A stretch of 64,000 bases of DNA, from positions 15,081 through 79,080 of the forward strand of contig JACKJI010000009.1 in NCBI GenBank assembly GCA_020638035.1, written 5' to 3'. Position numbers and translations under genes: made by a program. Within the stretch, counting starts at the first letter, position 1; each line of letters opens with the position of its first letter. This stretch comes from Hyphomicrobiaceae bacterium (GTDB lineage Bacteria; Pseudomonadota; Alphaproteobacteria; Rhizobiales; Hyphomicrobiaceae). Below are positions 4,746 to 44,835 of the stretch, one piece after another. A model generated the notes under the pieces. It saw only the letters and a program-made list of their open reading frames with translations, had not been told where the DNA came from and made no database searches.

Positions 4746-5001
4746 GGGCAACCAGCCCGCGTCCGCCGCCTCGCCGATCTACCCGCAGCCCCACACCAGC
4801 CGGCAAAGCTTTGCCACCCCTTCGGGTGGCCACGATATCGCGTGGCTCTCTCCGGTACGATCTGCTATTGCGGGCGGCGAAATCGGCATGCAAAAGAGGC
4901 CGGCAAGCTATCCGCAGCGCCGTGCTGGCGACTAGGCCTCGTACCGGCAACCACGCCGCCACACACCGCTCCCGCCCACCAATCAAGACGGAGATCTCCC
5001 G

Positions 5002-5412: not shown

Positions 5413-5452
5413 CCCAGTACCGGGCGCACCTGCTCCGCCTTGCGCAAGGACT

Positions 5453-6405: not shown

Positions 6406-6410
6406 GCCAG

Positions 6411-7319: not shown

Positions 7320-7530
7320 TCCTTCACAGCGCCACTCAGACCGACCCGTTCGATCAGCGCCGCAGGCTTTTCACGCTGAGCCGCATACACTTCAGCTCTA
7401 CGATTTCTAGAGCAGGTCCGACTTTGGTGGAATCACTTCCACGATCGTGGCCTGCTCCAAGATCTTGTTTGAGAGACTGAGTCACGCCTTCGATCGAAGC
7501 CCAAGCGTTTCCATCTCAGACGATCAGGCT

Positions 7531-8292: not shown

Positions 8293-8465
8293 GGCTCGAT
8301 CTCCTCGCAAACTCCGCCTACTTGGAAGCTCATGACGCGGCGGACGGCCGGACAATGATGCTCCAACGCGCTTCTTGCACCGGATCGGGGTGAAATGGCG
8401 GCAAACGATGTTTCGCCCGGCCACCGGGATCTGGTATGAAGGCGCCCCCGGCCGACACATGGCCC

Positions 8466-8541
8466 GGGCCCGTAGCTCAATGGTTAGAGCTGGCGGCTCA
8501 TAACCGTCTGGTTGCAGGTTCGAATCCTGCCGGGCCCACCA
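8466..8541 (+). tRNA. tRNA with CAT anticodon (elongator Met or lysidine-modified Ile2)
   Basis: Hand-folded 76-nt cloverleaf: GGGCCCG/CGGGCCC acceptor, GCTC/GAGC D-stem, GGCGG-CTCATAA-CCGTC anticodon arm, GCAGG-TTCGAAT-CCTGC T-arm, ACCA end. The G1:C72 pair excludes an initiator tRNA. Confidence 0.9.
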
Positions 8542-8586
8542 CTACTGATGTCGCGCACCTGTTGTTCATGAAATAGCGACCAACGC

Positions 8587-8964
8587 TCAACTATCCGCCT
8601 CGATCACTGCCACGCGCTCGCCGGCATGCGCTGATCTGAGAGCGGTCACATCGTCGAGGGCCTGCGCCCACACGTTGCACGGGCTTGCCAATCGGATCTC
8701 GCCGTTACGCGAAATCGGCGTCGGCCCGAAGCCAATCGCGATGGCATCACCGTCGGGCCAGAAAGCAATTTCACCAGCTTCCACCACATCGCGCGCATCG
8801 GCCTCCGGTGTCACCGTGACAGGCGTCGCGAAATAGACCTCCTGCCCCCAGGTCTGCGCCGTGGCGTAAATCGGCAGCGCCCGCCAGATGCGGTCCGCGG
8901 TTGCCGTGTCGCGCAACCTCGCGCGTAGCGCCACATCACCGATGCGTATCAATATCTCCCGCAA
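8587..8964 (-). CDS. Cyclophilin-like fold protein (small, DUF3830-type)
   Basis: Family pattern: L.DT.TA..IW.ALP....A..WG.E.YF......E......V..G.IA.WP.G.A.AI.FGPTP.S. Confidence 0.6.
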
Positions 8965-9039
8965 CGTCTCCTCCCCTGGTCGCCGGTCAGTCCGGTCTCA
9001 TTGTCATTGCCGCGCATCACGATGCAGATCAGCATCGCG

Positions 9040-9525
9040 TCACCTTTGGCGCATACCCTCTCCCGGCCTGCGCAACAGCGACACTTTTTCACCCACCCGC
9101 ACGCCCTGCAAGACCTTCACGTCACCAAGTGCGGTGGCAAAGACATTGACCGGAGCCGGCATGCGCATCTCACCTGGCCGCGAGATCGGCGTCGGCCCGA
9201 AGGGAAGGATGATGCGCCGTTCCTCGCTCCACAGGCAGATGTCGCCCGGCCGCGCCATCAGCCGCGCCGTCCGGTCCCGGCCCGACGCGATCGGAATCTC
9301 GACGTGGATCGCCTCTCCCCAGGGCTCGGCCACACCGAAGAGCGGCAGCGCCGCCCAGATCCGCTCGGCCGTCGCCGTTGCCGCAAGCGCCGCTTCCAGT
9401 TCGATGCGTCCTGCCCGGATCAGAATGACACGTGAGCCCGGGCCATGCTGCACGGCGGTTGCTTCGGGTGCGGCGGCACGCCTGGCAACTGGATCGGATC
9501 GGTGTCGTAGAATATCGGTCGGCAT
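9040..9525 (-). CDS. Cyclophilin-like fold protein, tandem paralog
   Basis: Same pattern as 8587..8964 (ATAERIWAALPLFGVAEPWGEAIHVEIP...GDICLWSEERRIILPFGPTPIS). The start is uncertain; ATG 9525 was chosen and an in-frame GTG lies further downstream. Confidence 0.55.
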   Translation of the reverse strand: MPTDILRHRSDPVARRAAAPEATAVQHGPGSRVILIRAGRIELEAALAATATAERIWAALPLFGVAEPWGEAIHVEIPIASGRDRTARLMARPGDICLWSEERRIILPFGPTPISRPGEMRMPAPVNVFATALGDVKVLQGVRVGEKVSLLRRPGEGMRQR

Positions 9526-9603
9526 GGCCCATCGCACAAAACGAAACGGGCGCCCATGAGGCGCCCGCTTCACAACGAATGACAAGTAGAATTGATCACA
9601 CGA

Positions 9604-10836
9604 TCAGGCTGGCGCCCGGCCGAACACCAACACCGCATTGAGGCCGCCGAATGCGAACGAGTTGGACATCGTATAGCGCACATTGAGGCTGCGGCCGGTG
9701 TTGGGCACATAATCGAGATCGCACTTGGGATCGGGATCTGTGAAGCCGATCGTCGGCGGCACCCAACCTTCGTTGATCGCCTTGATGCACACTCCTGCCT
9801 CGACGCCGCCGCCCGCACCCAGGAGATGGCCGTGCATCGACTTGGTGGAGGAGATCGCCATCTTGTAGGCGTGTTCGCCGAAGACGTCCTTGATGGCGTT
9901 GGTCTCGTTGACGTCGTTGAGTGCCGTCGCCGTGCCGTGCGCGTTGAGGTAGTCGATCTCAGACGGATCGAGGCCGGCGTCATCCAGCGCGAACTGCATG
10001 GCCGAGCGTGGGCCGTCGATGTCCGGGTTGACCATGTCCTTGCTGTCGGACGACATGCCAAAGCCCATGAGTTCGGCCAGGATCGTGGCGCCGCGCCGCT
10101 TGGCGTGCTCCAGCTCCTCCAGCACCAGAATTCCGGCGCCTTCGGCCAGAACCGTGCCGTTGCGCCGCTTGGAGAATGGGAAGCAGCCATCCGGAGAAAG
10201 CACGCGCATGGCCTGCCATGTCCGCATCGAGCCGTAAGTGAGCACGGCTTCCGATGCGCCCGCCACACCGACGTCGCAGAGGCCGTTGCGAATGTAGTCG
10301 TAGGCGAGGCCGATCGCATGCGTCGCCGTCGAGCAGGCCGAACAGGTCGCGAATGTCGGTCCCTTGATGCCGTATTCGATGCCCACGTGCGCGGACGCCG
10401 ACGAGCCGATGATGCGCAGCAGTGTTAGCGGGTGCGTGGCGCGCTTGTTGTGGATGAAGAGATCGCGATAGGCCGTCTCGACCGTCGAATATCCGCCGGC
10501 GCCAGAGCCGATGATGCAGCAGGAACGATAGGGGTTGGAATAGGGTGTCGGTAGCCCCGACATCGCCCAGGCTTCATCCGCCGCGCGGCCAGCAAACCAC
10601 GAATACCGCTCGCCGTACTGGATCTTCTTGCTTTTGACGTGCACAGCGGGATCAAAGCCTTTGATCTCGCCAGCGATATGGATGTAGAGGTCATCGAGAT
10701 TGAAGTTCTCGATACGGCTGACGCCGCACTTGCCCTCTTTCATCGACGCCCAGGTTTCTGTGCTGTCGAGACCGATCGGTGTGACCATGCCAAAGCCGGT
10801 CACCACGACGCGGCGCAAGCCGTCCGCTCTTTTCAT
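9604..10836 (-). CDS. Beta-ketoacyl-ACP synthase, KAS I/II (FabF/NodE-like)
   Basis: Active-site Cys context TCSACSTATHAIG, His contexts YLNAHGTAT and SMHGHLLGAGG. 410 aa. Confidence 0.85.
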   Translation of the reverse strand: MKRADGLRRVVVTGFGMVTPIGLDSTETWASMKEGKCGVSRIENFNLDDLYIHIAGEIKGFDPAVHVKSKKIQYGERYSWFAGRAADEAWAMSGLPTPYSNPYRSCCIIGSGAGGYSTVETAYRDLFIHNKRATHPLTLLRIIGSSASAHVGIEYGIKGPTFATCSACSTATHAIGLAYDYIRNGLCDVGVAGASEAVLTYGSMRTWQAMRVLSPDGCFPFSKRRNGTVLAEGAGILVLEELEHAKRRGATILAELMGFGMSSDSKDMVNPDIDGPRSAMQFALDDAGLDPSEIDYLNAHGTATALNDVNETNAIKDVFGEHAYKMAISSTKSMHGHLLGAGGGVEAGVCIKAINEGWVPPTIGFTDPDPKCDLDYVPNTGRSLNVRYTMSNSFAFGGLNAVLVFGRAPA

Positions 10837-10944
10837 ACACGTACTCTACGATCGAGGCGGCACCAGCGCCGCATTGTAAATGGACCAAGCGCGGGTGCGG
10901 TCACCAGCGACATCGCCGGACAGGCCGCCCACGCGCAATCTACA

Positions 10945-11220
10945 TCAGGCCTTGGCGGCGTCTGCCGACGCCGAATTCTGGGAGATCAGCGCCTTCACGC
11001 GATCAACGACGGAACCGACCGTCTTGAAATCCTCAACGTCCTCGTTGGCATTGTAGGGGATCTCGATCTGGAACCTGTCCTCGATGTCGAATACGATCAT
11101 CGCAAGATCGAGGGACTCGATTTTCAGATCGGTGAGAGGTGTCGACAGGCTGATGTCGTCACGCGGTTCCTTCATGTGCTTCTTGAGGATCTCGATGATC
11201 TTGGTCGCGACGTCGTCCAT
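10945..11220 (-). CDS. Acyl carrier protein (dedicated, NodF/AcpXL-like size)
   Basis: Start ATG 11220 is preceded by GGAGAACGAG. Phosphopantetheine Ser lies in LKIESLDLAMIVFDIEDRF. 91 aa, directly upstream of the KAS gene. Confidence 0.8.
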   Translation of the reverse strand: MDDVATKIIEILKKHMKEPRDDISLSTPLTDLKIESLDLAMIVFDIEDRFQIEIPYNANEDVEDFKTVGSVVDRVKALISQNSASADAAKA

Positions 11221-11612
11221 CTCGTTCTCCTGTCCGTGCCATCGGGCATAACGGATCGCTGTTACTCTGTTCGTACTAGGCACGTGCTGCCCTGCAAACA
11301 AGCTGGGGCCGTCCTTATACTTAAACCACGAAGCCGTCCAGCATGGGCATTTGCGGCAAAACTAGCAACGACTTCCAAGCAAGCCTCGTGCCGGCATGGG
11401 AGGGCACAGCCCCCCGAGCGGCAGGGTGGAAACAATGTTGTGATACCTCATCATGTTCCCAGCCTCTCCTAGTCGAAAGTCATGAAAAAGTGTTCAATAC
11501 TATCTACATGGCCTGTCTTGCATCTGCGTCGCGGCACTTCGACGGCGGGCCCGAAAATACAATGAATGTCCGGCCCTGCCAGCCTTAGCGGACCGGACCG
11601 GGAGGCCAGCAG

Positions 11613-13352
11613 ATGACCATGTCGAACCCCGCCCCTCAGGCGGGCATTGATGCCAACCCGCGGTGGCTCAACTCCTATCCTCAAAATATCGAGTGGCGTC
11701 AGATATTTACCCCAGCTCCTCTGTATGCGTTGCTGGACCGTGCGGTTGCACGCCATGCGACCCGGCCTGCGACCAATTTTCTAGGGCGCACGCTGACTTA
11801 TTCCGAACTTGGTCAAAGGGTCGAGCGAGCCGCAGCGGGACTACAGCGGCTAGGCGTGCGCAAGGGCACAAAGGTCGGTCTCTTCCTGCCCAATTCTCCG
11901 ACCTTCATCATCTTTTACTATGCGGTGCTGAAAGCCGGCGGCATCGTCGTCAACTACAACCCCCTCTATACGCTCGATGAGCTCGCGTTCCAGATTCGGG
12001 ACAGCGAAACCGAGATCATGGTGACGCTCGACCTGAAGCTCCTGTTCGACAAGGTGGAGGCCTTGTTGAAGGACGGCGTCCTGGCCAGGGCAGTCGTCGC
12101 CCCTTTCACCAGCCTGCTACCGGGCACCAAATCCGTTCTCTTCCGCCTACTGAAGGGTAAGGAGCTGGCCCACCCGTCGGCCTCGCCGATACGTGACCGC
12201 ATTACGACCGAGGGCCAGGTGATGACCGACCAGGGTCCGCGCATGCCGGTGCCGATCGACCCGGAAAGGGACATCGCCGTGCTCCAATATACGGGTGGCA
12301 CGACCGGCACGCCGAAGGGAGCCATGCTGACCCACGCCAACGCCTACGTTAACGTGCTTCAGGTGGCGAGTTGGGCGCCCGACCTGAAAGACGGCGAGGA
12401 GCGGGTGATGGGCGTGCTGCCGTTCTTCCACGTTTTCGCAATGACGGTCGTTATGAATTTCGGCGTCGCCAAGGCTGCCGAGATGGTCATCATGCCGCGT
12501 TTTGTTCTCAACGACGCGCTGAAGCTGATCAACCACACGCGGCCCACCGTGATGCCGGGCGTACCGACGCTCTTTAACGCCATCATGAACCACCCCAAGA
12601 TCAAGAGCTTCGATCTGTCCTCGTTGAAGTTCTGCCTGTCGGGCGGCGCACCATTGCCGATCGAGGTCAAGCAGAGGTTCGAAACACTGACGGGCTGCAA
12701 GGTGGTCGAAGGTTACGGGCTTTCCGAATCGTCGCCTGTCGCCACCTGCAACCCGATTGAGGGCAAGATCAAGTCCGGCTCGATCGGCATTCCGCTGCCG
12801 GCGACCTTCATCTCCCTGCGCGACCTTGATGACGCAGACAAGGAAGTACCCCACGGCGAAAAGGGTGAAGTCTGCATCAAGGGGCCGCAGGTTATGCTCG
12901 GCTACTGGAACCGGCCTGCCGAAACCGCCGCGGTCTTCACTTCGGACGGCTTTCTTCGCACCGGCGACGTTGCCCGCATGGATGACGACGGCTTCTTCGC
13001 CATCGAGGACCGTATCAAGGATCTCATCATCTGCTCGGGCTACAACGTCTATCCTCGGCAGATCGAGGAACGCATCTATGAGCATCCAGCCGTCGAGGAA
13101 GTAACCGTCATCGGCATCAAGGACGAATATCGCGGCGAAGCACCCAAGGCCTTCATCAAGCTCAAATCGGGCGCCCAGGCGAGCGCCGAAGACATCATGG
13201 CACACCTGGAGAAAACTCTCTCCAGAATCGAGCTGCCAGCAGCCATTGAATTCCGCGACAGCCTGCCCAAGACGATGATTGGCAAGTTGTCCAAGAAGGA
13301 GCTGAAGCAGGAGGAGGCGGCACGCGAGGCGGCCGCCCGCAAGACCGGATGA
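11613..13352 (+). CDS. Long-chain fatty acid-CoA ligase (AMP-binding family)
   Basis: AMP-binding motif LQYTGGTTGTPKGAMLTH, plus TGDVARMDDDGFF and IGKLSKKEL C-terminal motifs. Confidence 0.85.
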   Translation: MTMSNPAPQAGIDANPRWLNSYPQNIEWRQIFTPAPLYALLDRAVARHATRPATNFLGRTLTYSELGQRVERAAAGLQRLGVRKGTKVGLFLPNSPTFIIFYYAVLKAGGIVVNYNPLYTLDELAFQIRDSETEIMVTLDLKLLFDKVEALLKDGVLARAVVAPFTSLLPGTKSVLFRLLKGKELAHPSASPIRDRITTEGQVMTDQGPRMPVPIDPERDIAVLQYTGGTTGTPKGAMLTHANAYVNVLQVASWAPDLKDGEERVMGVLPFFHVFAMTVVMNFGVAKAAEMVIMPRFVLNDALKLINHTRPTVMPGVPTLFNAIMNHPKIKSFDLSSLKFCLSGGAPLPIEVKQRFETLTGCKVVEGYGLSESSPVATCNPIEGKIKSGSIGIPLPATFISLRDLDDADKEVPHGEKGEVCIKGPQVMLGYWNRPAETAAVFTSDGFLRTGDVARMDDDGFFAIEDRIKDLIICSGYNVYPRQIEERIYEHPAVEEVTVIGIKDEYRGEAPKAFIKLKSGAQASAEDIMAHLEKTLSRIELPAAIEFRDSLPKTMIGKLSKKELKQEEAAREAAARKTG

Positions 13353-19216: not shown

Positions 19217-20614
19217 ATGACTCTACGGCCTGACCCAACATTCCATGCCTCCCCGAGATTGGCCATGGACGCGCCCCAAGAGGCCTACTGCTACACGTTG
19301 CTGCTGAGCGCGGACCCGTCCAAGCCTGACGCTCTTGCCGTCGTCGACCTCAATCCCAAGTCTCCGACCTACAGCCAGGTCGTTCACACGTTGGAGATGC
19401 CCTTCAAGGGTGATGAGTTTCATCATTTCGGATGGAACGCCTGCTCCTCCGCACTTTCCCCTTTGTCCGCGCATGCTTTCGTCGAGCGACGATATCTCAT
19501 CATCCCGGGGCTCCGATCCTCACGCATCTACGTCGTCGACACCAGGCCGCACCCGACACAGGCCAAAATCCACAGGATCATCGAGAGCAGCGAGGTGCTG
19601 AGAGAAACAGGATATTCGCGCACACACACGGTGCACTGCGGGCCCGAAGGTGTCTACATCGGCGCACTCGGCGGAACGGGCGCGAATGGCATGGGTGGTC
19701 CGCCCGGCCTGTTCCTCATGGACTGCCAGTCATTGGATATCATCGGCCGATGGGAGAAGGAACAAGGGCCGCAGCGCATGTACTATGATTTTTGGTGGAA
19801 CCTGCCGCGCGATTACATGGTTGCAAGCGAATGGGGTCTTCCAATTCAATTCGAAAGCGGTCTCGTCAAGGACGACCTTCTGAACAATCGTTATGGGCAC
19901 CATCTCCACTTCTGGGGACTGCGAAGCAGGCGCCACCTTCAAGCCATTGACCTGGGTGCGAACTACCAGATGGTGCTCGAAGTGCGCCCCGCACATGATC
20001 CTAGCAAGGAGTACGGTTTTGCCGGTGTCGTTATCAACACGGCAACGCTTGAGGGATCGGTCTGGACGTGGTGGCGCGAAGGGGGACGGTTCCACGCCAA
20101 GAAGACGATTTCCATCCCGGCCGAACCCTGTCCCAATGATCGCCTGCCGGAGATTCTCAAAGGATTTGGCGCTGTGCCGCCGCTCCTTGCGGATCTGGCT
20201 CTTTCAATGGATGACCGCCTTCTTTTCGTGTCCTGTTGGGGGACGGGAGAGGTACGCCAGTATGACGTGAGCGATCCTTGGCGGCCGGTACTTGTCAGCC
20301 AGTTGTGGCTCGGTGGCATCGCGCGGCGCACCCGGCACCCCAACGGGAAGTCATTTCCAGGCGGACCGCAGATGCTGGAGCTCAGCCTCGATGGAAAACG
20401 GATCTATTGGACAAATTCGTTCTACTCTACGTGGGACGATCAGTTCTACCCTGGTGGGGTTTCCGGCATCCAGGTCATGGCGCATGTGCGGGGACGTGGC
20501 CTCGAGTACGCCAAAGATTTCTGGGTGACCGCTCCTGATGGTTATCGCGCACACCAGATCCATCTGGAAGGTGGGGACTGCTCGACGGATTCCTTCTGCT
20601 ACCCGTCAACATAG
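19217..20614 (+). CDS. Selenium-binding protein 56 (SBP56/SELENBP1) family, methanethiol oxidase-type, no signal peptide
   Basis: Full-length similarity to SELENBP1: HHFGWNACSS, SSRIYVVD, HTVHCGPEG, GGPQMLELSLDGKRIYWTNSFYSTWDDQFYP and a C-terminal GGDCSTDSF. GGAG lies 8 nt before the ATG. Confidence 0.85.
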   Translation: MTLRPDPTFHASPRLAMDAPQEAYCYTLLLSADPSKPDALAVVDLNPKSPTYSQVVHTLEMPFKGDEFHHFGWNACSSALSPLSAHAFVERRYLIIPGLRSSRIYVVDTRPHPTQAKIHRIIESSEVLRETGYSRTHTVHCGPEGVYIGALGGTGANGMGGPPGLFLMDCQSLDIIGRWEKEQGPQRMYYDFWWNLPRDYMVASEWGLPIQFESGLVKDDLLNNRYGHHLHFWGLRSRRHLQAIDLGANYQMVLEVRPAHDPSKEYGFAGVVINTATLEGSVWTWWREGGRFHAKKTISIPAEPCPNDRLPEILKGFGAVPPLLADLALSMDDRLLFVSCWGTGEVRQYDVSDPWRPVLVSQLWLGGIARRTRHPNGKSFPGGPQMLELSLDGKRIYWTNSFYSTWDDQFYPGGVSGIQVMAHVRGRGLEYAKDFWVTAPDGYRAHQIHLEGGDCSTDSFCYPST

Positions 20615-20616: not shown

Positions 20617-21285
20617 ATGGTCGGCATGGATTGGACAGTCGCAGGGCTCTGGGGAGTGGTTGCTCTCAGTGGCGTCTACCACGGAGCCAATCCTGCCATG
20701 GGTTGGCCGCTTGCCGTGTCAGCCGCACTCATGGATCGCACGCCGAGTTCCTTGGCATCCGCATTCTGGCCGCTTGCCGTCGGCCACTTCCTTGCGATGC
20801 TTGTCGTCGTGCTTCCTTTCGCTTTGGTCGTCTCACTCGTCGAATGGAAGTTCCAGATCCGGATCGCTGCGGCGCTCACTGTTATGACGTTCGGGGTCTA
20901 CCGACTTCTCATGCCTCGTCACCCCCGGGCCTTGTCGCGAATACCGCCGTCGCAGCTTGGACTGTGGTCCTTCATGGCTGCGCTCGCACATGGTGCCGGA
21001 CTGATGATCCTCCCGATCTATCTCGGCATTTGCACCTCCGACACCTTGACGCCTGGACATGAAGCCGCCCGCCGCCTGCTGGAAACGCATCTCGCTCTGG
21101 CCGGATTTGTTTCCGCCGTCCACACACTTACGATGGTTCTTACGGGCGGGCTGATGGCATGGCTCGCATATCGCTACCTCGGTCTGAGTTTCATCGCACG
21201 CTCGTGGTTCAACCTGGACGCGGTGTGGGCATCAAGCCTCATCGCAGTCGGCGCGCTCTCTCTCTTTCTGACGCTACTGGGTTAA
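20617..21285 (+). CDS. Polytopic membrane protein with conserved His residues, unknown function
   Basis: The ATG is 2 nt after the SBP56 stop. About 6 hydrophobic segments, with His in or near them (YHGANP, VGHFLAM, LAHGAGLM, AVHTLTM). Confidence 0.6.
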   Translation: MVGMDWTVAGLWGVVALSGVYHGANPAMGWPLAVSAALMDRTPSSLASAFWPLAVGHFLAMLVVVLPFALVVSLVEWKFQIRIAAALTVMTFGVYRLLMPRHPRALSRIPPSQLGLWSFMAALAHGAGLMILPIYLGICTSDTLTPGHEAARRLLETHLALAGFVSAVHTLTMVLTGGLMAWLAYRYLGLSFIARSWFNLDAVWASSLIAVGALSLFLTLLG

Positions 21286-21295: not shown

Positions 21296-21709
21296 TCAGC
21301 GCGAGGGGTTGTCTTGCATTCCCGGGTCGATTGGTGTCTCCACATGTCCGCCTGCATCGGCCCAGTCCTTGAATGCTCCGAGGTTGTAAACATTCGGATA
21401 GCCCATCTCCAACAACACCTTGGCGCTCAGCACAGAACGACCACCCGAGGCACAATAGAGAATGTAGGTCCTTTCCCTGGAGAATGCCTGATCATGATAT
21501 TTGCAGCTCGGGTCGGCGCGGAACTCAAGCATGCCCCGCGACACATGGATGGCGCCTGCGATCTTGCCGGTTTTCTCGACCTCAGGAGCGTCCCTGACGT
21601 CAACCACAACAGCTCCGGATTCGGAGATGAGTTGCTCCGCTTTCAACCGGTCGATACGCGGCACCAGCGTTTCCGCACTGCTGATCATGTCCGATACACT
21701 CTTGGTCAT
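21296..21709 (-). CDS. Single-domain rhodanese (sulfurtransferase)
   Basis: Active-site loop YCASGGRS. Start ATG 21709 (MTKSVSDM) is preceded by AGGAA. Confidence 0.8.
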   Translation of the reverse strand: MTKSVSDMISSAETLVPRIDRLKAEQLISESGAVVVDVRDAPEVEKTGKIAGAIHVSRGMLEFRADPSCKYHDQAFSRERTYILYCASGGRSVLSAKVLLEMGYPNVYNLGAFKDWADAGGHVETPIDPGMQDNPSR

Positions 21710-21749
21710 GTACTGTTCCTTCGCTGATTGATCGTTGCCTGGCGCGGGC

Positions 21750-22151
21750 TCAATCATCGGCGCCAACGTGTAATCGATAGGCATCCGCGGTCATCAGAGA
21801 CTGATGATCGATGGCGGAATCGAGAGTGATGCGGATGAGCCAACCGGCGCCGTAACAGTCGCTGTTGGTCAGCGCCGGATCGCCTTCGAGCTCTACATTG
21901 CAAGCAACGATAGTTCCATCCGCCGGAGCGACGAGATCCGAAACGACCTTGGCCGCCTCTATCGTGCCGAACGCGACACCGGCGCTGATGCGCTGCCCAG
22001 CCGCCGGCAGAGAGACACCAACGACGTCACCCAGTTGATCCTGGGCGAAATGGCTGACACCAATGACGGCACCGCCGGGCTCAGCACGTTCTTGAATCCA
22101 GAGATTTTCCGCATGGTAGAGCCGGTCGTCCGGGAATTTCGATGATGCCAT
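21750..22151 (-). CDS. Glycine-cleavage H-like lipoyl-carrier protein (GcvH/LbpA-like)
   Basis: Lipoyl-lysine motif TIEAAKVVSDLVAPADG plus a WLIRI C-terminal motif. Start ATG 22151 (MASSKF). Confidence 0.75.
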   Translation of the reverse strand: MASSKFPDDRLYHAENLWIQERAEPGGAVIGVSHFAQDQLGDVVGVSLPAAGQRISAGVAFGTIEAAKVVSDLVAPADGTIVACNVELEGDPALTNSDCYGAGWLIRITLDSAIDHQSLMTADAYRLHVGADD

Positions 22152-22310
22152 CAGAGGGGACTGCCTTGTCGGTGTTGGGTGTCGCACGCACGCTTAGGCG
22201 CTGCCATGAACCTGGGTCGAGGGAGCCTCAACGCACCGCAGCGAAGTGCACGGCTCGGAAGGCGCGTTGGAGCGATCGCCTCCCGTGTGACTATGGCTGC
22301 ATGAACCTCG

Positions 22311-22853
22311 TCACTCCGCCGCAGCGCCGAGGCTCAACGACTGACCGTTGGCGCTGACCTTGCCGACCACCTCGATCGGACGTTGCAGCGTATCAAGAAC
22401 GGGGCAGTGGCTCTCAACGGCTTGAACGAGTGTTCTGATCTGTTCGGCTGATGCCGAACTCTGGATCAATGTCTCGTAGGAAATTTTCGAGTATCCAGCC
22501 GGCACATTCGGATCGAGCGCGAACAATCCCTTGAGGTCTAGGTGTCCCTTCAGGTTGCATTTCACTGAATCAAGCGGGATTCCCATGACCGCGGCATAGG
22601 CGCTGTACATGACTTCCTGACAGGTGCCGAGCGCGACAAGAATGAGTTCGACCGGGTTCATGCCGGTGTCACCGCCTGCAAGCTCGGGCGGCTCGTCGGT
22701 TATCAAAGGCGGAAAATTACGTACGGTCGCCTTGCACCTGACGTTCTCGACCAGTTCGGTGTCGGCACGGAAAATGACCTTGGATGCATTCGGACTGTTC
22801 TGAATGCCCTCGATCGTCTTGAGCAAGGCTGACTTCACTTGATCCTGGGACAT
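22311..22853 (-). CDS. OsmC/Ohr family peroxiredoxin-like protein
   Basis: Two conserved Cys contexts (ALGTCQ and VESHCPV). Start ATG 22853 is preceded by AGGAGAGGAA. Confidence 0.75.
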   Translation of the reverse strand: MSQDQVKSALLKTIEGIQNSPNASKVIFRADTELVENVRCKATVRNFPPLITDEPPELAGGDTGMNPVELILVALGTCQEVMYSAYAAVMGIPLDSVKCNLKGHLDLKGLFALDPNVPAGYSKISYETLIQSSASAEQIRTLVQAVESHCPVLDTLQRPIEVVGKVSANGQSLSLGAAAE

Positions 22854-22956
22854 GGCGTTCCTCTCCTGCATTTTTCACTTTTTTCAGGAGACGATTACGC
22901 CACGTCGCACCAGTCCTCACAATTCGGGCCACTACCACCGAAACATAGTGGTTTCC

Positions 22957-23601
22957 CTAGCTGGACCGCTTTCCCTCCACCATCGCGGCCACCGGTTCGC
23001 ATTCCAATCTGGACAACATCTTGACCAGATGAACCACGCTGCGTGCGCCCATCTTGGCCATCATGTTCGCGCGATAAACCTCTACCGTCTTGCCGCTCAG
23101 TCCCAGTTCGTGTGCGATCTGCTTGGTGGACTTTCCAGATCCGACCAGTACCGCAATCTCCCGCTCTCGTCGTGTGAGTTGCCCGAAGAGAGAGCGAACC
23201 TTCTTGTCTTGGGCCCATTCAAGCCAGGCGCGCTGCGCCATCTGCAAGGCGTGCTCGGTCCGCTCGATCAGGGCCTGATCGTTGTAGGGCTTCTGGAGGA
23301 AGTCGACGGCTCCGGCGCGCATGGCGCGAACCGCCATCGGCACATCACCATGCCCCGTGACCATGATGATCGGCAGGCGCCAATCGCGCTGTTGCACTTC
23401 GCGCTGAAGTTCCAATCCACTCATGCCAGGCATACGTACATCAAGTATGAGGCACGCCGGCTCACCGGAATAGTCCTCAAGGAATTCGCTGGCCGAGCCA
23501 TAACAGACGACCTCGTGCCCAACAGATTCGAGAAGCCAGCGCAGTGACTCGCGTGCTGCTGCGTCGTCGTCCACCACCAGGACCGAACCTTTATGGTTCA
23601 T
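22957..23601 (-). CDS. Response regulator, FixJ/LuxR (NarL) family
   Basis: Receiver domain ([24 protein letters not shown]) plus a LuxR HTH ([44 protein letters not shown]). Confidence 0.9.
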
Positions 23602-24902
23602 TGCAACACCAGGTGCTCGCCGAGGGGCGGCAATTCGAATGCGAAGGACAACCCCTGCCCTGCTTCATGTTGCGCAGCCGACAGATTGCCGCCGTGTGCC
23701 TCTACGATCGACCGACATATGGATAGTCCCATGCCCATGCCGGCCTGCTTGGTCGTGAAGAACGGTGTGAAGAGCTTGCCAATCTCGTCGGGCGGAAGTC
23801 CCGGGCCGGTGTCATCGATGCAGACCCTCGCCATTCCGGTCGATGCGGTGCTTGTGGTGATCCTCATTCTCCGCTGACTCGCAGGAACACATTCCATCGC
23901 TTCAAAGCCGTTGCGAACGATGTTGAGCACCACCTGCTCCAGCTGCGTCCGCTCTCCCAGAACGACAGGCAGGTTGCTGGCCAGCTCACATTCAATGACG
24001 ACGTGTTGAGCGCGCGCCTCGATCTCCGCAATCGATAGGACCTGCCCCACAACATCGTTCATAGACAAGCTCGATACCGTTTCGCCCTCCTTGGATATGA
24101 ACCCGCGCAGGCTGCGGATAATGTTCGCGGCACGTTCCGCTTGCGCGCACACATGCTCCATCGCTGCCGCTACGTCTGCATTCGCCGGACTTCCGCGCAA
24201 TCGTAGGTGCGCACCCCTGGAGTAGTTGGCAATAGCGGTGAGAGGCTGGTTCAGCTCGTGCGCAAGCATTGTCGCAAGTTGCCCCATGGTGTCCATGCGG
24301 GACGCGTGAGCCAACTCGCGATATTCCCGTCTCAGGTGCTGCTCATAGAGCTTTTGCGCACTGATGTTGCGGGTGATCGCCAGGATCGCCGTCACATTGC
24401 CGTCGCCGTCCATCAGCGGCGCGGCGTGAGTTTCCATCCATAAGCGCCGCTTCTTGAGAGAGATGATCTCGAACTCAAGCTTCTTGACCGCCCCGGCATA
24501 CACGGCGTCGGTGAGCAAACGGTAGGCCGGCGCAAAATCGGGAGCGACGAGATCGTAGACAGAAATCCCGATCACCTCGCCCCGCTCATCAGCCTCGACC
24601 AGCCGCAGCCCAGCGGGGTTCATCTCCAGAATTGTGCCATCCCTCGAATGGACTTTGACGCACTCCGGTTCTGTTTCGATGATCTGCCGGAGGTGTCTTT
24701 CGTTCTGTGCAAGCCGGGCTTCGGCAACGTGACGTTCGGCAACCTCTTTCTCGAGAATCGCTTTGGCGGACCGCAATCTCGCATTCAGTCGGGCAACATA
24801 GATCATCACGGCTGCCGCAAGCACTACGAACACCGCGCAAAAAGACTGCCAAAGCCCCAATATAGGCAAGTCCGAAACAATCTCGTTCGCGTTCATTTTC
24901 AT
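23598..24902 (-). CDS. PAS-domain sensor histidine kinase (FixL-like architecture)
   Basis: N-terminal TM segment, PAS region, H-box [11 protein letters not shown], and G-boxes DTGPGL and GMGMGLSI. The stop overlaps the response regulator start (ATGA). Confidence 0.85.
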
Positions 24903-24977
24903 AGCCTATAGATCTATTCTTCCAACCTATTTATGACGATCCTTCCGGGATGTTTGGACGCGGCATTGCTTCGTGGA

Positions 24978-24991
24978 TTGATTTATATCAC
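24978..24991. promoter_or_regulatory. FNR/FixK-type box TTGAT-N4-ATCAC
   Basis: TTGATTTATATCAC matches the TTGAT-N4-ATCAA consensus at 9 of 10 positions. It lies 76-89 nt upstream of the kinase start codon in an AT-rich intergenic region. Confidence 0.45.
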
Positions 24992-25060: not shown

Positions 25061-25100
25061 CCTTCAAACAAGGAGGGAGCAAGACAGTGCTTGCTCCCTC
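25061..25100 (-). terminator. Rho-independent-like terminator downstream of the porin gene
   Basis: An 11-bp stem, GAGGGAGCAAG (25073-25083) with CTTGCTCCCTC (25090-25100), around a 6-nt loop. On the minus strand it is followed by CTTGTTTGAAGG. Confidence 0.5.
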
Positions 25101-25259: not shown

Positions 25260-26651
25260 TTAGAACGCGATCAGACCACCCACTGTCACGATGTGCAGAT
25301 CATCGAGGTTGTCGAATGCGCCAACAACACCAGGCCCCGACATGTTGGGATCGTAGCTCTTGTAGTTGAGCCAAAGCGACATCGCCGCCGCATCGATTTC
25401 CTGGACTACACCCAGTCCCCACTGGGTGAGCTTGCTGCCGCTGACGCCAAAGGCCGTCAGCGCAGGATGGTACATGTCATCACGCACGCCATACTCACCG
25501 TAGAGTACCGTGTGGCCGAGAGACGACCACTTCCTCCGGAGACCGGCCTTGATATACCAGTTGTGTCCGCTCGGCTGATTGGCCGTGAAAGCCGCCCCCA
25601 ATGCAGGATCAAAGACGTTGTTGTTGTCCTCGATTCCGTAGGCACCATAGAGGAAGAGCCCAGATGCCGTGTGGTGAACGAATGCACCGATCTGGAAATA
25701 GTCGGAGTCGAGGTGAACGGGATGGAATGCCGTGAGCCCGGTGACGATATCAAAGCCCGTGAATTGACTTTCATCCCCGTGATGTGAATAGGCCGCTGCG
25801 ACCGCAAGCTTGATGCCGTTGAACTCTCCCGCATAGCGCAGCGCGACATCCCAGAAGTCATCCTCACCCCAACTCGCTGAGACCGAAAACCCGCCAAATG
25901 TTGGCGAATCGTAGCGAACTGCGTTGGTCGGTATGCCGTCGCAGTCGCCCGCAACAGGCAGCGCTGTCGAACCGCACCACATCAAGGCTCCCGTCGGGAA
26001 CCCGGTTCCATTCGGCAGCACGAGCTGCGTGCCGTTACGCGACAGGTTGATGGCCATGCCGTCGAGAGGAACCCAATTGGCCATGACAAGCGAACCCGAT
26101 CCGTCGACGAGCGCGGCGGCGTGTTGCGATGCCTGCGGGATGAGACCAACACTCACCTGTCCAAGCCGCGTGCTCTTCAGAAACCAGAACGAATAGAGCA
26201 GATCGACCGCGCTGCTGGCCAAGGCGCCATTACCGTTGACGATGCGCAATGCCGAAGGTCCGTCATCACCGAAGCGGGAGTTTCCGGCCGTCAAGGGGTC
26301 CGACGAATTGACTTCAACTTGAATGACGTATCCAGCCGACCACTCAGGGCTAATCGTCGCTGCTCCGGTCAGCTTGAAGTGCGAGTTCAGGGTCGATCCC
26401 ACACCCGTGACGTAGACGTTACTTGCAGCGCCGTTGTCATACCACATCACCTGCTCGGCCACCCATCCTGTGATGGCGAGCGATACCTTGCGATTTCCCT
26501 TGCGCGCTGTCGTAGCTTCAAGTTCGGCTACGCGCTCCTCCAAATCCGCACAGCAGTCCCCACCGAGGTCGGCGGCCTTCACCGCGTGGCCTGCTATAGC
26601 TGTACTCAGAATCCCCCCGAGTGCTGTTGCACAAAGCAAGAGCTTGTTCAT
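25260..26651 (-). CDS. Alphaproteobacterial porin (Porin_2 family)
   Basis: Signal peptide, CCADLEERVAELEATTARKGNRKVSL N-terminal coiled segment typical of Bradyrhizobiaceae porins, alternating beta-strand pattern and a C-terminal ...GGLIAF. Confidence 0.85.
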   Translation of the reverse strand: MNKLLLCATALGGILSTAIAGHAVKAADLGGDCCADLEERVAELEATTARKGNRKVSLAITGWVAEQVMWYDNGAASNVYVTGVGSTLNSHFKLTGAATISPEWSAGYVIQVEVNSSDPLTAGNSRFGDDGPSALRIVNGNGALASSAVDLLYSFWFLKSTRLGQVSVGLIPQASQHAAALVDGSGSLVMANWVPLDGMAINLSRNGTQLVLPNGTGFPTGALMWCGSTALPVAGDCDGIPTNAVRYDSPTFGGFSVSASWGEDDFWDVALRYAGEFNGIKLAVAAAYSHHGDESQFTGFDIVTGLTAFHPVHLDSDYFQIGAFVHHTASGLFLYGAYGIEDNNNVFDPALGAAFTANQPSGHNWYIKAGLRRKWSSLGHTVLYGEYGVRDDMYHPALTAFGVSGSKLTQWGLGVVQEIDAAAMSLWLNYKSYDPNMSGPGVVGAFDNLDDLHIVTVGGLIAF

Positions 26652-27205: not shown

Positions 27206-28339
27206 TCAACGCTTGCTGGCGTCATCGCCGTCGAGGGATCGCAGGAATGCGGCGAGCGCTGCCTTCTCATCGGCGGCGAGGTTCAGGCGCACCAGATATC
27301 CGTTGTTGCCAAAATTGGCAGCCGAGCCGCTGCTGTAGTATTCGATCACGTCATCAAGTGTGGCGATTGAACCATCGTGCATATACGGGGGCGTGCGCGA
27401 AACATTGCGGAGACTCGGTGTCTTGTAGGCCCAGCGGTCACTCTCCTTGAGCGTTACTTCAAAGCGGCCGACATCGTTCCGAGGCTTCTCGCCGAAAGCG
27501 TCAATCGTCTCCAGAGACATTTTGGTCTCCACGCCTGGCGCAAGTGGAATGACGTATTCACGTTCCGGTCGCATCGCCGCGCGGTATCCGATTCCGGTGT
27601 TGTGGAACTGATGATCGGTAAGGAGCGCCGAGTCCGGCTCGATGCGGTGGCAGCCGCTGCAGCCGCCTTTGCCGGTGAAAATACGAAATCCAGCAACCTC
27701 CTGTTCGTTCAACAGGTCTTTCTCGGTTCCGTAATACCAGCGGTCGAAGCGCGAGTTCGCAGAGAGCAGTGTCGCCTCGAACGAAGCAATCGCGTCACCG
27801 ACCGAGCGGACTGAAATGCCTTCGCCCGGATAGACCTGCTCGAATTGCACCGTGTAATCCTCAAGCGCACCGATGCGATCGAGGACATGTCCCATGGACG
27901 GATTGGCCATCTCGTCCTCGGCGAGGAGAGGTAGCCATGCTTGCAGATCAAGACGGGATTCACGACCGTCATGAAACAGAGAGCGTTGATAGACGACGTT
28001 GAGCAGCGACGGCGAATTGCGCCTGATCGTGCGCCCCTCCATGCCTATGGCTTTCTTCGACTGCGTCGATGCGAACGCATCCTCCTCAAGATGGCACATG
28101 GCGCATGAAAGCGTATTGTTGAAGGACAGCCGGCGATCGAAGAACAGCCTTCGACCCAATGCGACCTTGGCGACGGAAACGTTCGCGAATTTCAAGGGAA
28201 GCGCTGGCAAACCAAGGGGCACGATAAGTTCCGCGCGCCTTCGCCCGTTCGATGAGGCGTCTCCAGCGCTGAGCGTCTCCGCCAAGGCTGCTCCTGCACA
28301 CACAACGATCATCGACAGAATGACTAGCCTGAATGTCAT
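27206..28339 (-). CDS. Di-haem cytochrome c peroxidase / MauG family
   Basis: Two CxxCH motifs (CAMCH, CSGCH) and a signal peptide beginning at MTFRLVILSMIVV (ATG 28339). Confidence 0.85.
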   Translation of the reverse strand: MTFRLVILSMIVVCAGAALAETLSAGDASSNGRRRAELIVPLGLPALPLKFANVSVAKVALGRRLFFDRRLSFNNTLSCAMCHLEEDAFASTQSKKAIGMEGRTIRRNSPSLLNVVYQRSLFHDGRESRLDLQAWLPLLAEDEMANPSMGHVLDRIGALEDYTVQFEQVYPGEGISVRSVGDAIASFEATLLSANSRFDRWYYGTEKDLLNEQEVAGFRIFTGKGGCSGCHRIEPDSALLTDHQFHNTGIGYRAAMRPEREYVIPLAPGVETKMSLETIDAFGEKPRNDVGRFEVTLKESDRWAYKTPSLRNVSRTPPYMHDGSIATLDDVIEYYSSGSAANFGNNGYLVRLNLAADEKAALAAFLRSLDGDDASKR

Positions 28340-28349
28340 GGCCGGCACC

Positions 28350-28903
28350 TCACGGCTTGGCTCCATCGATTGCTGGCAGGTCCCCGTGTTCGATCAGCAG
28401 AGTACGAATATCGCTTTCGATAACGTCGGGCGTCACGAAGGCTGAGGAATAGATTTCCCGCACCCATGATCTCTTGTCGATGAGATAGAATTTGACTTGG
28501 TGGCTTACGGTTGTCGTTGCATTGCCGTTGGCGTCGAGATCTCGCGCCGCAGCTTGGCCAAAGCTCTCGATGATCGAGCCCAGAAAGCTATCCGACCATG
28601 TGGTCAGGAAGTGCCAGGGTGCTATGCTCTGCGTCGCTCGGCGTCCAGCAGCAAAGATTTCCAATCGCTCTGGTGTGTCGACACGGGGATCGAGGCTGAT
28701 GAGCACCAATCGTACCTTATCGTGGAAATCGGCGTTCTTCTTGACCAGATCGTGGACCGTCTCGAACATCGACCAGATGGACGGGCAACCCTCCGGGTCC
28801 CGGCAGGTCGAGTAGAAGAAGCTCAAGAGCGTGATCTTATCGCTCGTGTATGTGGACAGCCTGTGCGGCCACCATGCGTTGTCCTCCAGCACCCAAGTGC
28901 TGG
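28350..28903 (-). pseudogene. SCO1/SenC-family copper chaperone, 5'-truncated by IS insertion
   Basis: Thioredoxin-fold SCO pattern (ITLLSFFYSTCRDPEGCP...LVLISLDP..DTPE...YLID). The frame stays open up to the IS end at 28904, with no start codon or signal peptide left. Confidence 0.7.
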
Positions 28904-28969
28904 TGACCTGCCCCAGGGTTTTCGGACCATCGATAACTTGAGAGACTGGCCTCCGAATCGGAGGACGGC

Positions 28970-29233
28970 ATGCGCAAGAGCAGGTTCCGGGACGAGCAGA
29001 TGGTGGCGATCCTTCGCGAGGCGGATCGCGGGACTGTCGGCGAGGTTGCGAAGAGGCACGGCATCAGCGAGCAGACGATCTACACGTGGCGCAAGCGCTT
29101 CGGGGCGCTGCAGTCAGACGACGTGCGCCGTCTGAAGCAGCTCGAAGCGGAGAATGCGCGGCTGAAGAAGCTCGTCGCCGAGCGCGATCTCGAGATCGAG
29201 GTGATGAAGGAGATCGCCGCAAAAAAATGGTGA
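28970..29233 (+). CDS. IS3-family transposase OrfA (HTH)
   Basis: MRKSRFRDEQMVAILREADRG...TIYTWRKRFG plus a leucine-zipper tail. It ends at the AAAAAAA-TGG-TGA slippery site. Confidence 0.9.
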   Translation: MRKSRFRDEQMVAILREADRGTVGEVAKRHGISEQTIYTWRKRFGALQSDDVRRLKQLEAENARLKKLVAERDLEIEVMKEIAAKKW

Positions 29234-30180
29234 GCGTGCCGGCTCGCCGTTCGCAGGTGGCGTACGCGACAGGGCATGGCCTGTCGCAGCGGCGGGCTTG
29301 CACGCTGATCGGAGTGGGGCGGTCGGCGTTGCGGTATCGATCGACGAAGGCGGAGACGGATGCGCCGGTGCTGGCGCGGATGGCGGCGCTCGCCGCGCAG
29401 TATCCGCGCTACGGCTATCGTCGGATCGCGATCTTCCTCGAACGGGAAGGGCATGTGATGAGCTTCGGCCGCTGCCATCGCCTGTGGCGACTGGCGAAGC
29501 TTCAAGTGCCGCGCAAGCGGCCGAGAAAGCGCATCGCGACGGGCCGTCCGCGCCCGAACGCGCCGACCGGTGCGAACCAGGTGTGGAGCTACGACTTCGT
29601 GTTCGACTGGTGCGCCAACGGTCAGCAGCTGAAGTGCCTCACCGTCACCGACGAGTGGACGAAAGAGGGTCTGGCGATCGAGGTCGATGGCCGCATCCGC
29701 TCGGGCCGCGTGATCGAGGTGCTGTCGCGGCTCGTCTCGGAGCGCGGCGCGCCGCTGTATCTGAGGTCCGACAACGGGCCCGAGTTCGTGTCGCGGGCGC
29801 TGCTGAAGTGGATCGTCGGTCAGGGCATCGGGTGCGCGTTGATCGATCCGGGCAAGCCCTGGCAGAATGGCGCGACCGAGAGCTTCAACGGCAAGTTCCG
29901 CGACGAGTGCCTGTCGCTGGAATGGTTCCGCTCGCGGGCCGAAGCAAAGGTCGTGATCGAGACGTGGCGGCGCCACTTCAACGAGGTGCGGCCGCATTCG
30001 AGCATAGGCTACATGACGCCGGCCGCGTTCGTGGCAAGACTGAAGGAGCAAGACGCAGCGCCCGTGCCGGCGACGGGCCGGATCGCTGCGGTATGTGGGG
30101 CCTCCGCGCTCCGCCCCGTCGCGCAACCGCCTCGCAAGAGGCAAACAGCAAAAGCAACGAGGGCTGATCTCTCAAGCTAA
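29227..30180 (+). CDS. IS3-family transposase OrfB (DDE integrase core), expressed as OrfAB by -1 frameshift
   Basis: YPRYGYRRI, NQVWSYDFV, SDNGPEF, PGKPWQNGATESFNGKFRDECL and RPHSSIGYMTPAAF are IS3/IS407 DDE hallmarks. It lies in the -1 frame relative to orfA. Confidence 0.9.
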   Translation: MVSVPARRSQVAYATGHGLSQRRACTLIGVGRSALRYRSTKAETDAPVLARMAALAAQYPRYGYRRIAIFLEREGHVMSFGRCHRLWRLAKLQVPRKRPRKRIATGRPRPNAPTGANQVWSYDFVFDWCANGQQLKCLTVTDEWTKEGLAIEVDGRIRSGRVIEVLSRLVSERGAPLYLRSDNGPEFVSRALLKWIVGQGIGCALIDPGKPWQNGATESFNGKFRDECLSLEWFRSRAEAKVVIETWRRHFNEVRPHSSIGYMTPAAFVARLKEQDAAPVPATGRIAAVCGASALRPVAQPPRKRQTAKATRADLSS

Positions 30181-30208
30181 ACGTGGTCCGAAGAAATTGG
30201 GCAGGTCA

Positions 30209-44807: not shown

Positions 44808-44835
44808 TGACCTGCCCAATTTCTTCGGACCACGT

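Follow-up and report, generated by a model that had tools for sequence, protein, structure and literature searches.

We describe here a gene cluster centred on an OsmC-family protein in a 64,000-bp stretch of a Hyphomicrobiaceae genome (contig JACKJI010000009.1, positions 15,081 to 79,080; hereafter the window), together with related loci in other bacteria. On the minus strand of the window, five genes were confirmed by the list of open reading frames (ORFs) and by domain scans: they encode a kinase, a regulator, an OsmC-family protein, a GCV_H-family protein and a single-domain rhodanese (lengths in amino acids, aa). Together with a palindrome located between the second and the third gene, they are arranged as follows.

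23598..24902, minus strand: sensor histidine kinase with one N-terminal membrane helix, a cytoplasmic PAS domain with the motif EPECV, HisKA and HATPase_c (Pfam, NCBIfam).
22957..23601, minus strand: response regulator of the FixJ/NarL family, REC plus GerE/LuxR helix-turn-helix (HTH); its start overlaps the kinase stop (ATGA).
22946..22959, no strand: palindrome TAGTGGTTTCCCTA (TAGGG-N4-CCCTA, one mismatch); it overlaps the regulator stop codon and precedes the osmC start by 93 bp.
22311..22853, minus strand: OsmC-superfamily thiol protein, 180 aa, with invariant Cys40, Cys78 (LGTCQE helix) and Cys150 (HCPV); start set by homology.
21750..22151, minus strand: GcvH-family lipoyl carrier, 133 aa, with lipoyl-Lys68 in IEAAKVVSDL; Pfam GCV_H, 110 bits.
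21296..21709, minus strand: single-domain rhodanese, 137 aa, with Cys86 in the loop CASGGRS; Pfam Rhodanese PF00581, 61.8 bits; start set by homology.

An earlier reading of the same DNA, made from the sequence only, had listed five genes running from 24902 to 21296 on one strand, and all of them are present with the domains ascribed to them (Pfam, NCBIfam). The overlap it reported between kinase and regulator is also real, the regulator ATG and the kinase stop sharing the letters ATGA, as is the 10-bp spacing between the rhodanese stop at 21296 and the end of a membrane-protein gene at 21285. The short gaps it described between the genes had to be refined, the same-strand order being correct: start codons were reset by alignment to the proteins of a syntenic locus (OsmC 22853, GcvH-like 22151, rhodanese 21709), and the intergenic gaps ahead of these three genes are therefore 103, 159 and 40 bp, respectively. 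Since osmC has its own promoter region, containing a conserved palindrome, the five genes most likely form two transcription units, hk-rr (kinase and regulator) and osmC-gcvH-rhd (OsmC, GcvH-like protein and rhodanese).

The OsmC-like protein matches Pfam OsmC (PF02566) with 66 bits, against a cut-off of 27.5, and its best curated match is NF041052 (OsmC_like_Se, OsmC-related (seleno)protein), with a score of 88.3 for a cut-off of 95. An AlphaFold2 (AF2) model, with a predicted local distance difference test score (pLDDT) of 71.6, has the OsmC/Ohr fold and is matched by Foldseek to 2OPL, 1LQL, 1UKK, 1QWI and 1N2F; being of moderate quality, with residues 46-63 below a pLDDT of 50, the model confirmed the fold and could not place Cys40 or the catalytic Arg. 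Both cysteines that had been called conserved, C78 and C150, are invariant in alignments of 19 and of 81 sequences; the count of two was wrong, however, because C40 is invariant as well. R45, E54 and E80 are further invariant residues of the subfamily. C78 lies on the central helix, as a peroxidatic Cys does, and C150 in a motif of the H-x-C-P type that holds the resolving Cys. Judged from alignment and model, the protein looks catalytically competent, and peroxide handling is our best guess for what it does.

A search with this protein returned more than 700 relatives, with an identity of 84% in Hyphomicrobiaceae and of 57-66% in Beta- and Gammaproteobacteria and Nitrospirota. To survey the OsmC subfamily, one genome per species was scanned, which gave 221 relatives; 80 loci were kept and their neighbours scored by tblastn. 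Forty-four of these loci, having at least 9 kb on both sides of osmC, are called fully flanked. A lipoyl carrier, either GcvH-like or a lipoyl domain on dihydrolipoyl dehydrogenase (Lpd), was counted when within 4.5 kb of osmC, and Lpd itself when within 4.5 kb downstream: the carrier was found in 31 of the 44 fully flanked loci (53 of all 80), Lpd in 24 (42 of 80), a kinase/regulator pair in 23 (45 of 80) and a rhodanese in 11 (18 of 80). Each osmC-adjacent flavoprotein tested beats the dihydrolipoyl dehydrogenase cut-off, scoring 429-488 bits against 408.8.

Gene order around osmC varies among lineages. Three Hyphomicrobiaceae metagenome-assembled genomes (MAGs; L010, L012 and L013) carry the series mtoX-SCO1-mauG-porin-kinase-regulator-osmC-gcvH-rhd, followed by a convergent membrane gene and a cytoplasmic SBP56 gene; mtoX is the gene for methanethiol oxidase, itself an SBP56-type protein. 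One further MAG of this family has kinase, regulator, osmC, rhodanese and the convergent membrane gene with cytoplasmic SBP56, and is without gcvH, and metagenome contig L092 holds an intact mtoX-SCO1-mauG-porin-kinase-regulator series, breaking off after the regulator gene. In Filomicrobium (L004), a single strand encodes an mtoX-type SBP56, SCO1, mauG (overlapped by 4 bp by the kinase gene), kinase, regulator, osmC, a 472-aa pyridine-nucleotide disulfide oxidoreductase, gcvH, rhodanese and porin. Rhodocyclaceae have osmC directly followed by a 596-aa fusion of lipoyl domain and an oxidoreductase of that type, on whose gene the regulator and kinase genes converge, and in Methylophilus (L070) a lipoyl synthase gene is inserted between gcvH and lpd.

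Other neighbours are peculiar to single lineages. The Thiobacillus thioparus DSM 505 locus (L023) contains, at 1347-12820, a kinase/regulator pair, a palindrome-like site, an NMT1-type ABC transporter and a second small OsmC-like gene (135 aa); it also has a second gcvH, which passes both GcvH cut-offs, and the osmC-lpd-gcvH-rhd set comes last, separated from a convergent mtoX operon by a flavocytochrome c sulfide dehydrogenase gene. In Methylobacter (L075, 10533-12853), where mtoX is not found within 10 kb, osmC is followed by a luciferase-like monooxygenase gene and an acyl-CoA-dehydrogenase-like gene, a pairing that recalls sulfone/sulfonate monooxygenase systems; two ORFs of another locus (L082; 368 and 397 aa) are of similar size. 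Two loci from Methylophaga or a related gammaproteobacterium have a metallo-beta-lactamase-fold gene 3' of osmC: in one (L055, 10681-14670) it is followed by a FadL/TodX-type outer-membrane channel gene and mtoX, the other being L057 (10673-13457). According to a published study, MDMS009_862 and MDMS009_906, annotated like those genes of the former locus, rank among the transcripts of Methylophaga thiooxydans most induced by dimethyl sulfide (DMS).

The GcvH-like protein of the window scores above the cut-off of the PRK01202 subfamily (121.1 against 117) and below that of the TIGR00527 equivalog (110.5 against 115.85), and its best solved relatives in the Protein Data Bank (PDB) are all GcvH. 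The lipoyl-lysine motif EAAKVVSDL had been described as intact, and the alignment bears this out: E65 and K68 of the E-x-x-K motif are invariant in 33 orthologues. Neither gcvT nor gcvP is among the ORFs scanned in the window, and since they are not nearby the gene is, by context, no glycine-cleavage gene.

The sequence-only reading had assigned this carrier to the LbpA type and proposed three independent handlers of by-products, with OsmC removing peroxide and carrier and rhodanese acting in sulfane-sulfur oxidation. In agreement with that model, the lipoyl-Lys is intact, rhodanese and GcvH-like gene are almost always found together, and LbpA does function in a DMS-degrading Hyphomicrobium (PMC6067878). 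LbpA proteins, however, are encoded in hdr-like clusters and possess two strictly conserved Cys, near the N- and the C-terminus, which are missing from GcvH (Cao et al. 2018, PMC6067878). Here, the protein's sole Cys, at positions 84 and 99, fall in columns that are mostly Val and Pro in the 33 orthologues, and no hdr-like genes were found among the neighbours or the other large ORFs scanned across the window, nor in the related loci examined. The carrier scores above the GcvH subfamily cut-off and keeps company with OsmC and Lpd, and many relatives have, directly 3' of osmC, an Lpd-fused lipoyl domain in its place. The LbpA identity is supported neither by gene context nor by cysteines, and the model of three separate handlers appears quite unlikely.

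The GcvH-like protein is better read as a putative lipoyl reductant of OsmC. Among relatives the carrier travels with OsmC and with Lpd, and in some of them its place is taken by an N-terminal lipoyl domain forming part of the dehydrogenase, which is the signature of lipoyl-dependent OsmC/Ohr systems. OsmC has been found active in an assay with lipoamide, Lpd and NADH, and lipoylated L and H proteins were suggested as possibly required for the peroxidase activity of Trichomonas OsmC (PMC5384416).

The rhodanese has a six-residue active-site loop, and its C86 does not vary among 16 cluster orthologues. Of the 18 loci with this rhodanese, 17 also have the GcvH-like gene, and a role as a sulfane-sulfur handler is possible. 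Its closest homologues outside the cluster, in Bradyrhizobium and Faunimonas, have no sulfur-oxidation context. In two Bradyrhizobium loci (L089 and L090, 5362-6396), a rhodanese 63% identical to that of the window directly follows a CMD/AhpD-family gene (faint Pfam match), under an AraC-type regulator: a second pairing of such a rhodanese with a thiol-peroxidase-like protein.

A link of the locus to methanethiol oxidation had been suspected from its gene content, and the survey supports it. An MtoX-type SBP56 gene lies within 10 kb of osmC in 27 of the 80 loci and in 22 of the 44 fully flanked ones, in the latter as mtoX-SCO1-mauG. Less than 1% would be expected under random placement, and co-location at 50% is far above chance, because a span of 20 kb makes up only some 0.5% of a genome of 4 Mb. 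The linkage takes at least six arrangements across alpha-, beta- and gammaproteobacteria. The mtoX operon is upstream on the same strand in Hyphomicrobiaceae and Filomicrobium; convergent, 3-9 kb downstream, in Thiobacillus, including T. thioparus DSM 505; divergent from the kinase gene in Rhodocyclales; divergent from osmC across a LysR-type gene in M. thiooxydans DMS010 (L068); and downstream, past the metallo-beta-lactamase and FadL-type channel genes, in other Methylophaga. The conserved mtoX context published so far, that of Hyphomicrobium sp. VS, comprises SCO1 and mauG only (Eyice et al. 2018, PMC5739008), and in the searchable literature no paper was found that names both 'mtoX' and 'OsmC'.

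The proximity of mtoX could in principle be inherited synteny devoid of specific function, the module then being a general defence against oxidative stress, controlled by two-component genes that sense redox state. About one quarter of the 80 loci have none of the partner genes, several showing OsmC alone, most mtoX loci do without the module, and in Methylophaga osmC adjoins a LysR-type gene and not a two-component system, all of which would fit such an explanation. Yet the linkage survives in at least six arrangements, found across three proteobacterial classes and amid genome surroundings that are unrelated, which argues for selection rather than inheritance. Moreover, the kinase gene is inside the mtoX operon or divergent from it in several lineages, and osmC depth is raised in an RNA run in which mtoX is highly expressed. 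We therefore regard a generic stress module as very unlikely.

The window itself represents the same locus as in the relatives, with SCO1 cut by an insertion sequence (IS) and mtoX absent. The genes and elements flanking the five-gene cluster are listed here.

19217..20614, plus strand: SBP56-family protein, 465 aa, of the SELENBP1/archaeal type, converging on the rhodanese gene; without evident signal peptide.
20617..21285, plus strand: polytopic membrane protein, 222 aa, conserved partner of cytoplasmic SBP56.
25073-25100: strong terminator-like hairpin, 3' of the porin gene, conserved in four related loci.
25260..26651, minus strand: porin (Porin_4), between mauG and the kinase gene, 69% identical to the Filomicrobium (L004) porin (Pfam, tblastn).
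27206..28366, minus strand: MauG-like di-haem cytochrome c peroxidase, Pfam CCP_MauG 161.7 bits, 56% identical to the Filomicrobium MauG; a maturation partner in mtoX operons.
28350..28901, minus strand: SCO1/SenC copper chaperone gene, first 63 codons missing (tblastn residues 64-239 of 241, ending at 28901), cut by the IS.
28903..30208, plus strand: IS3-family insertion sequence, 1306 bp, with transposase ORFs and an identical inverted copy at 44808-46113 (blastn, 100% over 1306 bp).

No mtoX-type gene was found by tblastn anywhere in the window, nor was mtoX or the 5' end of SCO1 found in the window beyond either IS copy. The inverted pair brackets about 14.6 kb and could mediate inversion or act as a composite element; the second copy abuts a 404-aa ORF (45881-47095, minus strand) whose 3' end enters the IS sequence. 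Owing to the hairpin behind the porin gene, the kinase gene has its own promoter region.

The gene converging on the rhodanese, which the sequence-only reading had named methanethiol oxidase, is not of the MtoX type. Its product is a full-length, cytoplasmic, SELENBP1-like SBP56 (Pfam SBP56 544 bits; archaeal structure 2ECE 547 bits), which scores 88.8 bits with the NCBIfam MtoX model, for a cut-off of 650, and has 22% identity to the Filomicrobium MtoX; it is followed by a membrane-protein gene, not by SCO1. Human SELENBP1 is reported to be a methanethiol oxidase, and by analogy the same activity is plausible for the window protein. The convergent arrangement with the rhodanese recurs in four loci (L009, L010, L012 and L013), and in these and in L053 the 222-aa membrane protein adjoins a cytoplasmic-type SBP56, always on its 3' side. 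The membrane protein has no Pfam or NCBIfam match; its HGA(N/G) motifs are paired, and it may act as a transporter for the cytoplasmic SBP56. Farther away in the window, an Fe/Mn superoxide dismutase (SOD) ORF (62399-63172) has about 58 additional N-terminal residues ahead of the SOD domain, possibly an export signal or the result of a mis-set start, and a UPF0176/TrhO-type ORF (3417-4352), whose sole match is Pfam UPF0176_N, bears no relation to the cluster rhodanese.

As to regulation, the kinase and its partner had been compared with the oxygen-sensing FixL/FixJ pair, an analogy that fails in the scans: the kinase reaches 209.9 bits with the NCBIfam FixL model (cut-off 850) and the regulator 223.5 bits with the FixJ model (cut-off 255), the TtrR model giving 166.5 bits. 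FixL entries of the PDB match only residues 153-431 of the kinase, that is the kinase core, made up of the dimerisation and histidine phosphotransfer (DHp) and catalytic domains, and among solved structures no FixL haem-domain entry was matched at E <= 1e-6. Within the PAS domain the motif EPECV is conserved, its Cys81 being kept in 96% of 46 orthologues. An FNR/FixK-like box had also been pointed out upstream of the kinase gene, at 24978-24991. It has one mismatch, the TTGAT-N4-ATCAA search gives 3 sites of this quality across the window where 1.35 would be expected, and the box is absent at the equivalent position in the four closest related loci; being neither enriched nor conserved, it was rejected as a chance occurrence.

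The palindrome ahead of osmC is found again in relatives: in alpha- and betaproteobacterial loci it lies 105-130 bp ahead of the osmC start codon. It is the sole site with up to one mismatch in the window, where sites with two mismatches are at chance level, and none was found upstream of the cytoplasmic SBP56 gene there. Up to one mismatch, it occurs in 11 of 78 osmC upstream regions, as against 0.46% of random 350-bp windows; up to two, in 19, of which 16 have two-component genes adjacent. In four Thiobacillus-type loci a related palindrome, AAGGGTAAACCCTT, precedes mtoX by about 200 bp. Judging from this distribution, TAGGG-N4-CCCTA is the likely operator through which the regulator would act on the osmC promoter.

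Some information on expression comes from M. thiooxydans DMS010. Locus L068 is its mto-cluster 2, the coordinates matching exactly once the scaffold is reversed; the 465-aa MtoX is MDMS009_768, the 164-aa SCO1 protein is MDMS009_894, and it is from MDMS009_768 that the osmC/lipoyl-lpd pair diverges. In one public RNA run the mtoX unitig has a depth of 17,000-98,000 and the osmC unitigs one of 7,700-9,800, with a mean depth of 509 for the downstream 17.9-kb flank contig (Logan); three other runs are flat at 41-95. In a published study of this organism, the dihydrolipoamide dehydrogenase MDMS009_809 is reported at 1007 on DMS versus 15 on methanol, and its level in the proteome rises 7.67-fold. 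For the organism of the window itself, the RNA runs yielded no more than metatranscriptome contigs that contain 5-11% of the words.

On this basis we propose, with a confidence only slightly better than even, that the locus encodes a cytoplasmic thiol redox module which is regulated, depends on lipoic acid and accompanies the oxidation of methanethiol, and in which OsmC reduces a hydroperoxide. The membrane-anchored kinase, sensing through a non-haem PAS domain with a conserved Cys, would phosphorylate the FixJ/NarL-type regulator, which would bind TAGGG-N4-CCCTA and activate the separate osmC-gcvH-rhd transcript. Electrons would pass from NADH to dihydrolipoyl dehydrogenase, cluster-encoded in most relatives and here presumably supplied from elsewhere in the genome, then to lipoyl-Lys68 of the GcvH-like carrier and to Cys78/Cys150 of OsmC, which would reduce H2O2 or an organic peroxide arising from methanethiol oxidation catalysed by SBP56/MtoX. 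The rhodanese may draw on the same dihydrolipoyl carrier, either to clear away sulfane sulfur produced when H2S reacts with oxidants, or to repair persulfidated or methylthiolated Cys on OsmC. Gene content, motifs, synteny, mtoX linkage and the conserved palindrome are observed; from them we infer the direction of electron flow, the peroxide substrate, the role of the rhodanese, the binding of the regulator and the sensed signal.

Several points weigh against this proposal. The OsmC-like protein misses the curated OsmC model TIGR03562 (16.1, cut-off 85.8) and TIGR03563 (SACOL1771; 24, cut-off 166) and gave no match to the NCBIfam Ohr model; its closest PDB entry, 2OPL (GSU2788), is uncharacterised and without the second Cys; and the third invariant Cys, C40, has no explanation. 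It is for these reasons that the peroxide substrate is inferred and not read off from a family assignment. OsmC/Ohr enzymes favour organic hydroperoxides. In Methylophaga, the H2O2 responses reported in the published study are those of catalase and AhpC. By tblastn, neither the 159 bp separating osmC from gcvH nor the rest of the window contains lpd or a remnant of it, and the palindrome with up to two mismatches accompanies just 16 of 45 loci that have adjacent two-component genes and a scannable upstream region. MtoX is periplasmic (PMC5739008), unlike the proteins of the OsmC module, which have no signal peptides. In the reverse test, the module accompanies just 2 of 12 metagenome mtoX loci that extend 8 kb or more to either side, and a third, L092, ends after the regulator gene: mtoX can do without the module, and, set beside the 22 of 44, this indicates that the OsmC subfamily depends on mtoX context far more than the converse. 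Finally, contig or unitig depth is a poor measure of expression, a rough signal, so that the M. thiooxydans data serve as supporting evidence only, and the identity of MDMS009_809 with the osmC-adjacent lpd is unconfirmed, a peptide-sequence search of the study supplements having found nothing.

Part of this evidence is also consistent with another terminal reaction, in which NADH, Lpd, lipoyl-GcvH and OsmC/rhodanese would reduce not a peroxide but an organosulfur disulfide, trisulfide or persulfide (dimethyl disulfide, dimethyl trisulfide, CH3-S-SH, protein persulfides), returning methanethiol and sulfide to the oxidase pathway. Rhodanese and organosulfur genes are steady company of osmC, which makes this a real rival: neighbours are of organosulfur rather than general stress type, with mtoX at half of the loci, flavocytochrome c sulfide dehydrogenase and the NMT1-type ABC transporter in T. 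thioparus, the luciferase-like monooxygenase and acyl-CoA-dehydrogenase-like genes in Methylobacter, the metallo-beta-lactamase and FadL-type channel in Methylophaga, and a rhodanese that accompanies the GcvH-like gene almost without exception; the third invariant Cys, and the distance of the subfamily from proven peroxidases, point the same way. On the other hand, no OsmC-superfamily member is known as a disulfide or persulfide reductase, and the canonical peroxidatic and resolving Cys positions are both retained. On balance we consider this reaction unlikely.

Thiobacillus thioparus reportedly has an NADH-dependent dimethyl disulfide reductase activity, which has not been assigned to a gene. 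One may imagine that OsmC-like enzyme, lipoyl-GcvH, Lpd and rhodanese together constitute that activity, as an NADH-dependent reductase of organosulfur disulfides or persulfides (e.g. dimethyl disulfide, methyl hydropersulfide), with the PAS kinase and its regulator as a dedicated methanethiol or sulfide sensor governing both the module and mtoX via the AGGG-N4-CCCT palindrome. To this combined proposal we give little credence.

In the turnover of DMS and dimethylsulfoniopropionate (DMSP), the oxidation of methanethiol is a key step, and its products, H2O2, H2S and formaldehyde, are reactive. To our knowledge, the conserved gene set recognised so far for this step consists of mtoX, SCO1 and mauG only, and regulation of mtoX is known to us only in roseobacters, via an IclR-type regulator. 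If the proposed hydroperoxide-reducing module is real, it would supply candidates, open to experiment, for the means by which sulfur oxidisers and methylotrophs withstand the methanethiol oxidase that they make, and, as it brings a dedicated sensor kinase, a regulator and a recognisable candidate operator, it would make a regulator of the pathway outside roseobacters directly testable. It would also be a form of the lipoyl-dependent OsmC system that bacteria encode in an operon, together with an H-type carrier dedicated to it. The mechanism proposed is, as such, of a known kind, that of lipoyl-dependent OsmC/Ohr systems; what is new is that Lpd, an H-type carrier, a rhodanese and in some cases LipA are brought together in an operon devoted to the system, that this operon has a two-component system and a candidate operator of its own, and that the tie to methanethiol oxidase recurs.

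Comparison with known systems delimits these novelties. With FixL/FixJ, the window pair shares a kinase core that is nearest FixL and a regulator of FixJ architecture (REC plus LuxR-type HTH), but both proteins stay below the equivalog cut-offs, and the PAS domain has the conserved Cys motif EPECV and no FixL haem-domain match. With the mtoX-SCO1/senC-mauG cluster, the window shares mauG and the SCO1 remnant, in the order seen in relatives, and close relatives have mtoX directly upstream; it differs in having no mtoX and an IS-cut SCO1, and the kinase/regulator pair and the osmC-lpd-gcvH-rhd module are undescribed in the report on that cluster (PMC5739008). The likeness to LbpA lies in a small GcvH-like protein with a lipoyl-Lys, encoded apart from any glycine cleavage operon, in a group of organisms that break down C1 sulfur compounds; the window locus, however, is without hdr-like genes, the two conserved Cys or a dedicated lipoate ligase, and the partners of the carrier are OsmC and Lpd.

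The nearest precedents for the chemistry are Xylella Ohr, which works with lipoylated proteins and Lpd, and the hydrogenosomal OsmC of Trichomonas vaginalis. They too are two-Cys enzymes of the OsmC superfamily, here encoded beside genes for a lipoylated carrier and dihydrolipoyl dehydrogenase, and in T. vaginalis the suggested carrier is a glycine-cleavage H protein, as at this locus. In contrast to them, the present OsmC belongs to a separate subfamily with three invariant Cys, below the OsmC and Ohr model cut-offs; its bacterial partners share an operon dedicated to them, which frequently includes a rhodanese and in some cases lipoyl synthase; and the system has its own two-component system, a conserved candidate operator and linkage to methanethiol oxidase, the window being without lpd. 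A similar electron path to the one we propose for the OsmC module is followed in the AhpC/AhpD/DlaT/Lpd relay of Mycobacterium tuberculosis, from NADH to Lpd, to a lipoyl protein, to a thiol protein and to peroxide; there, however, the terminal proteins are AhpD/AhpC and not OsmC, and the carrier is the E2 component of pyruvate dehydrogenase, not a dedicated H-type protein.

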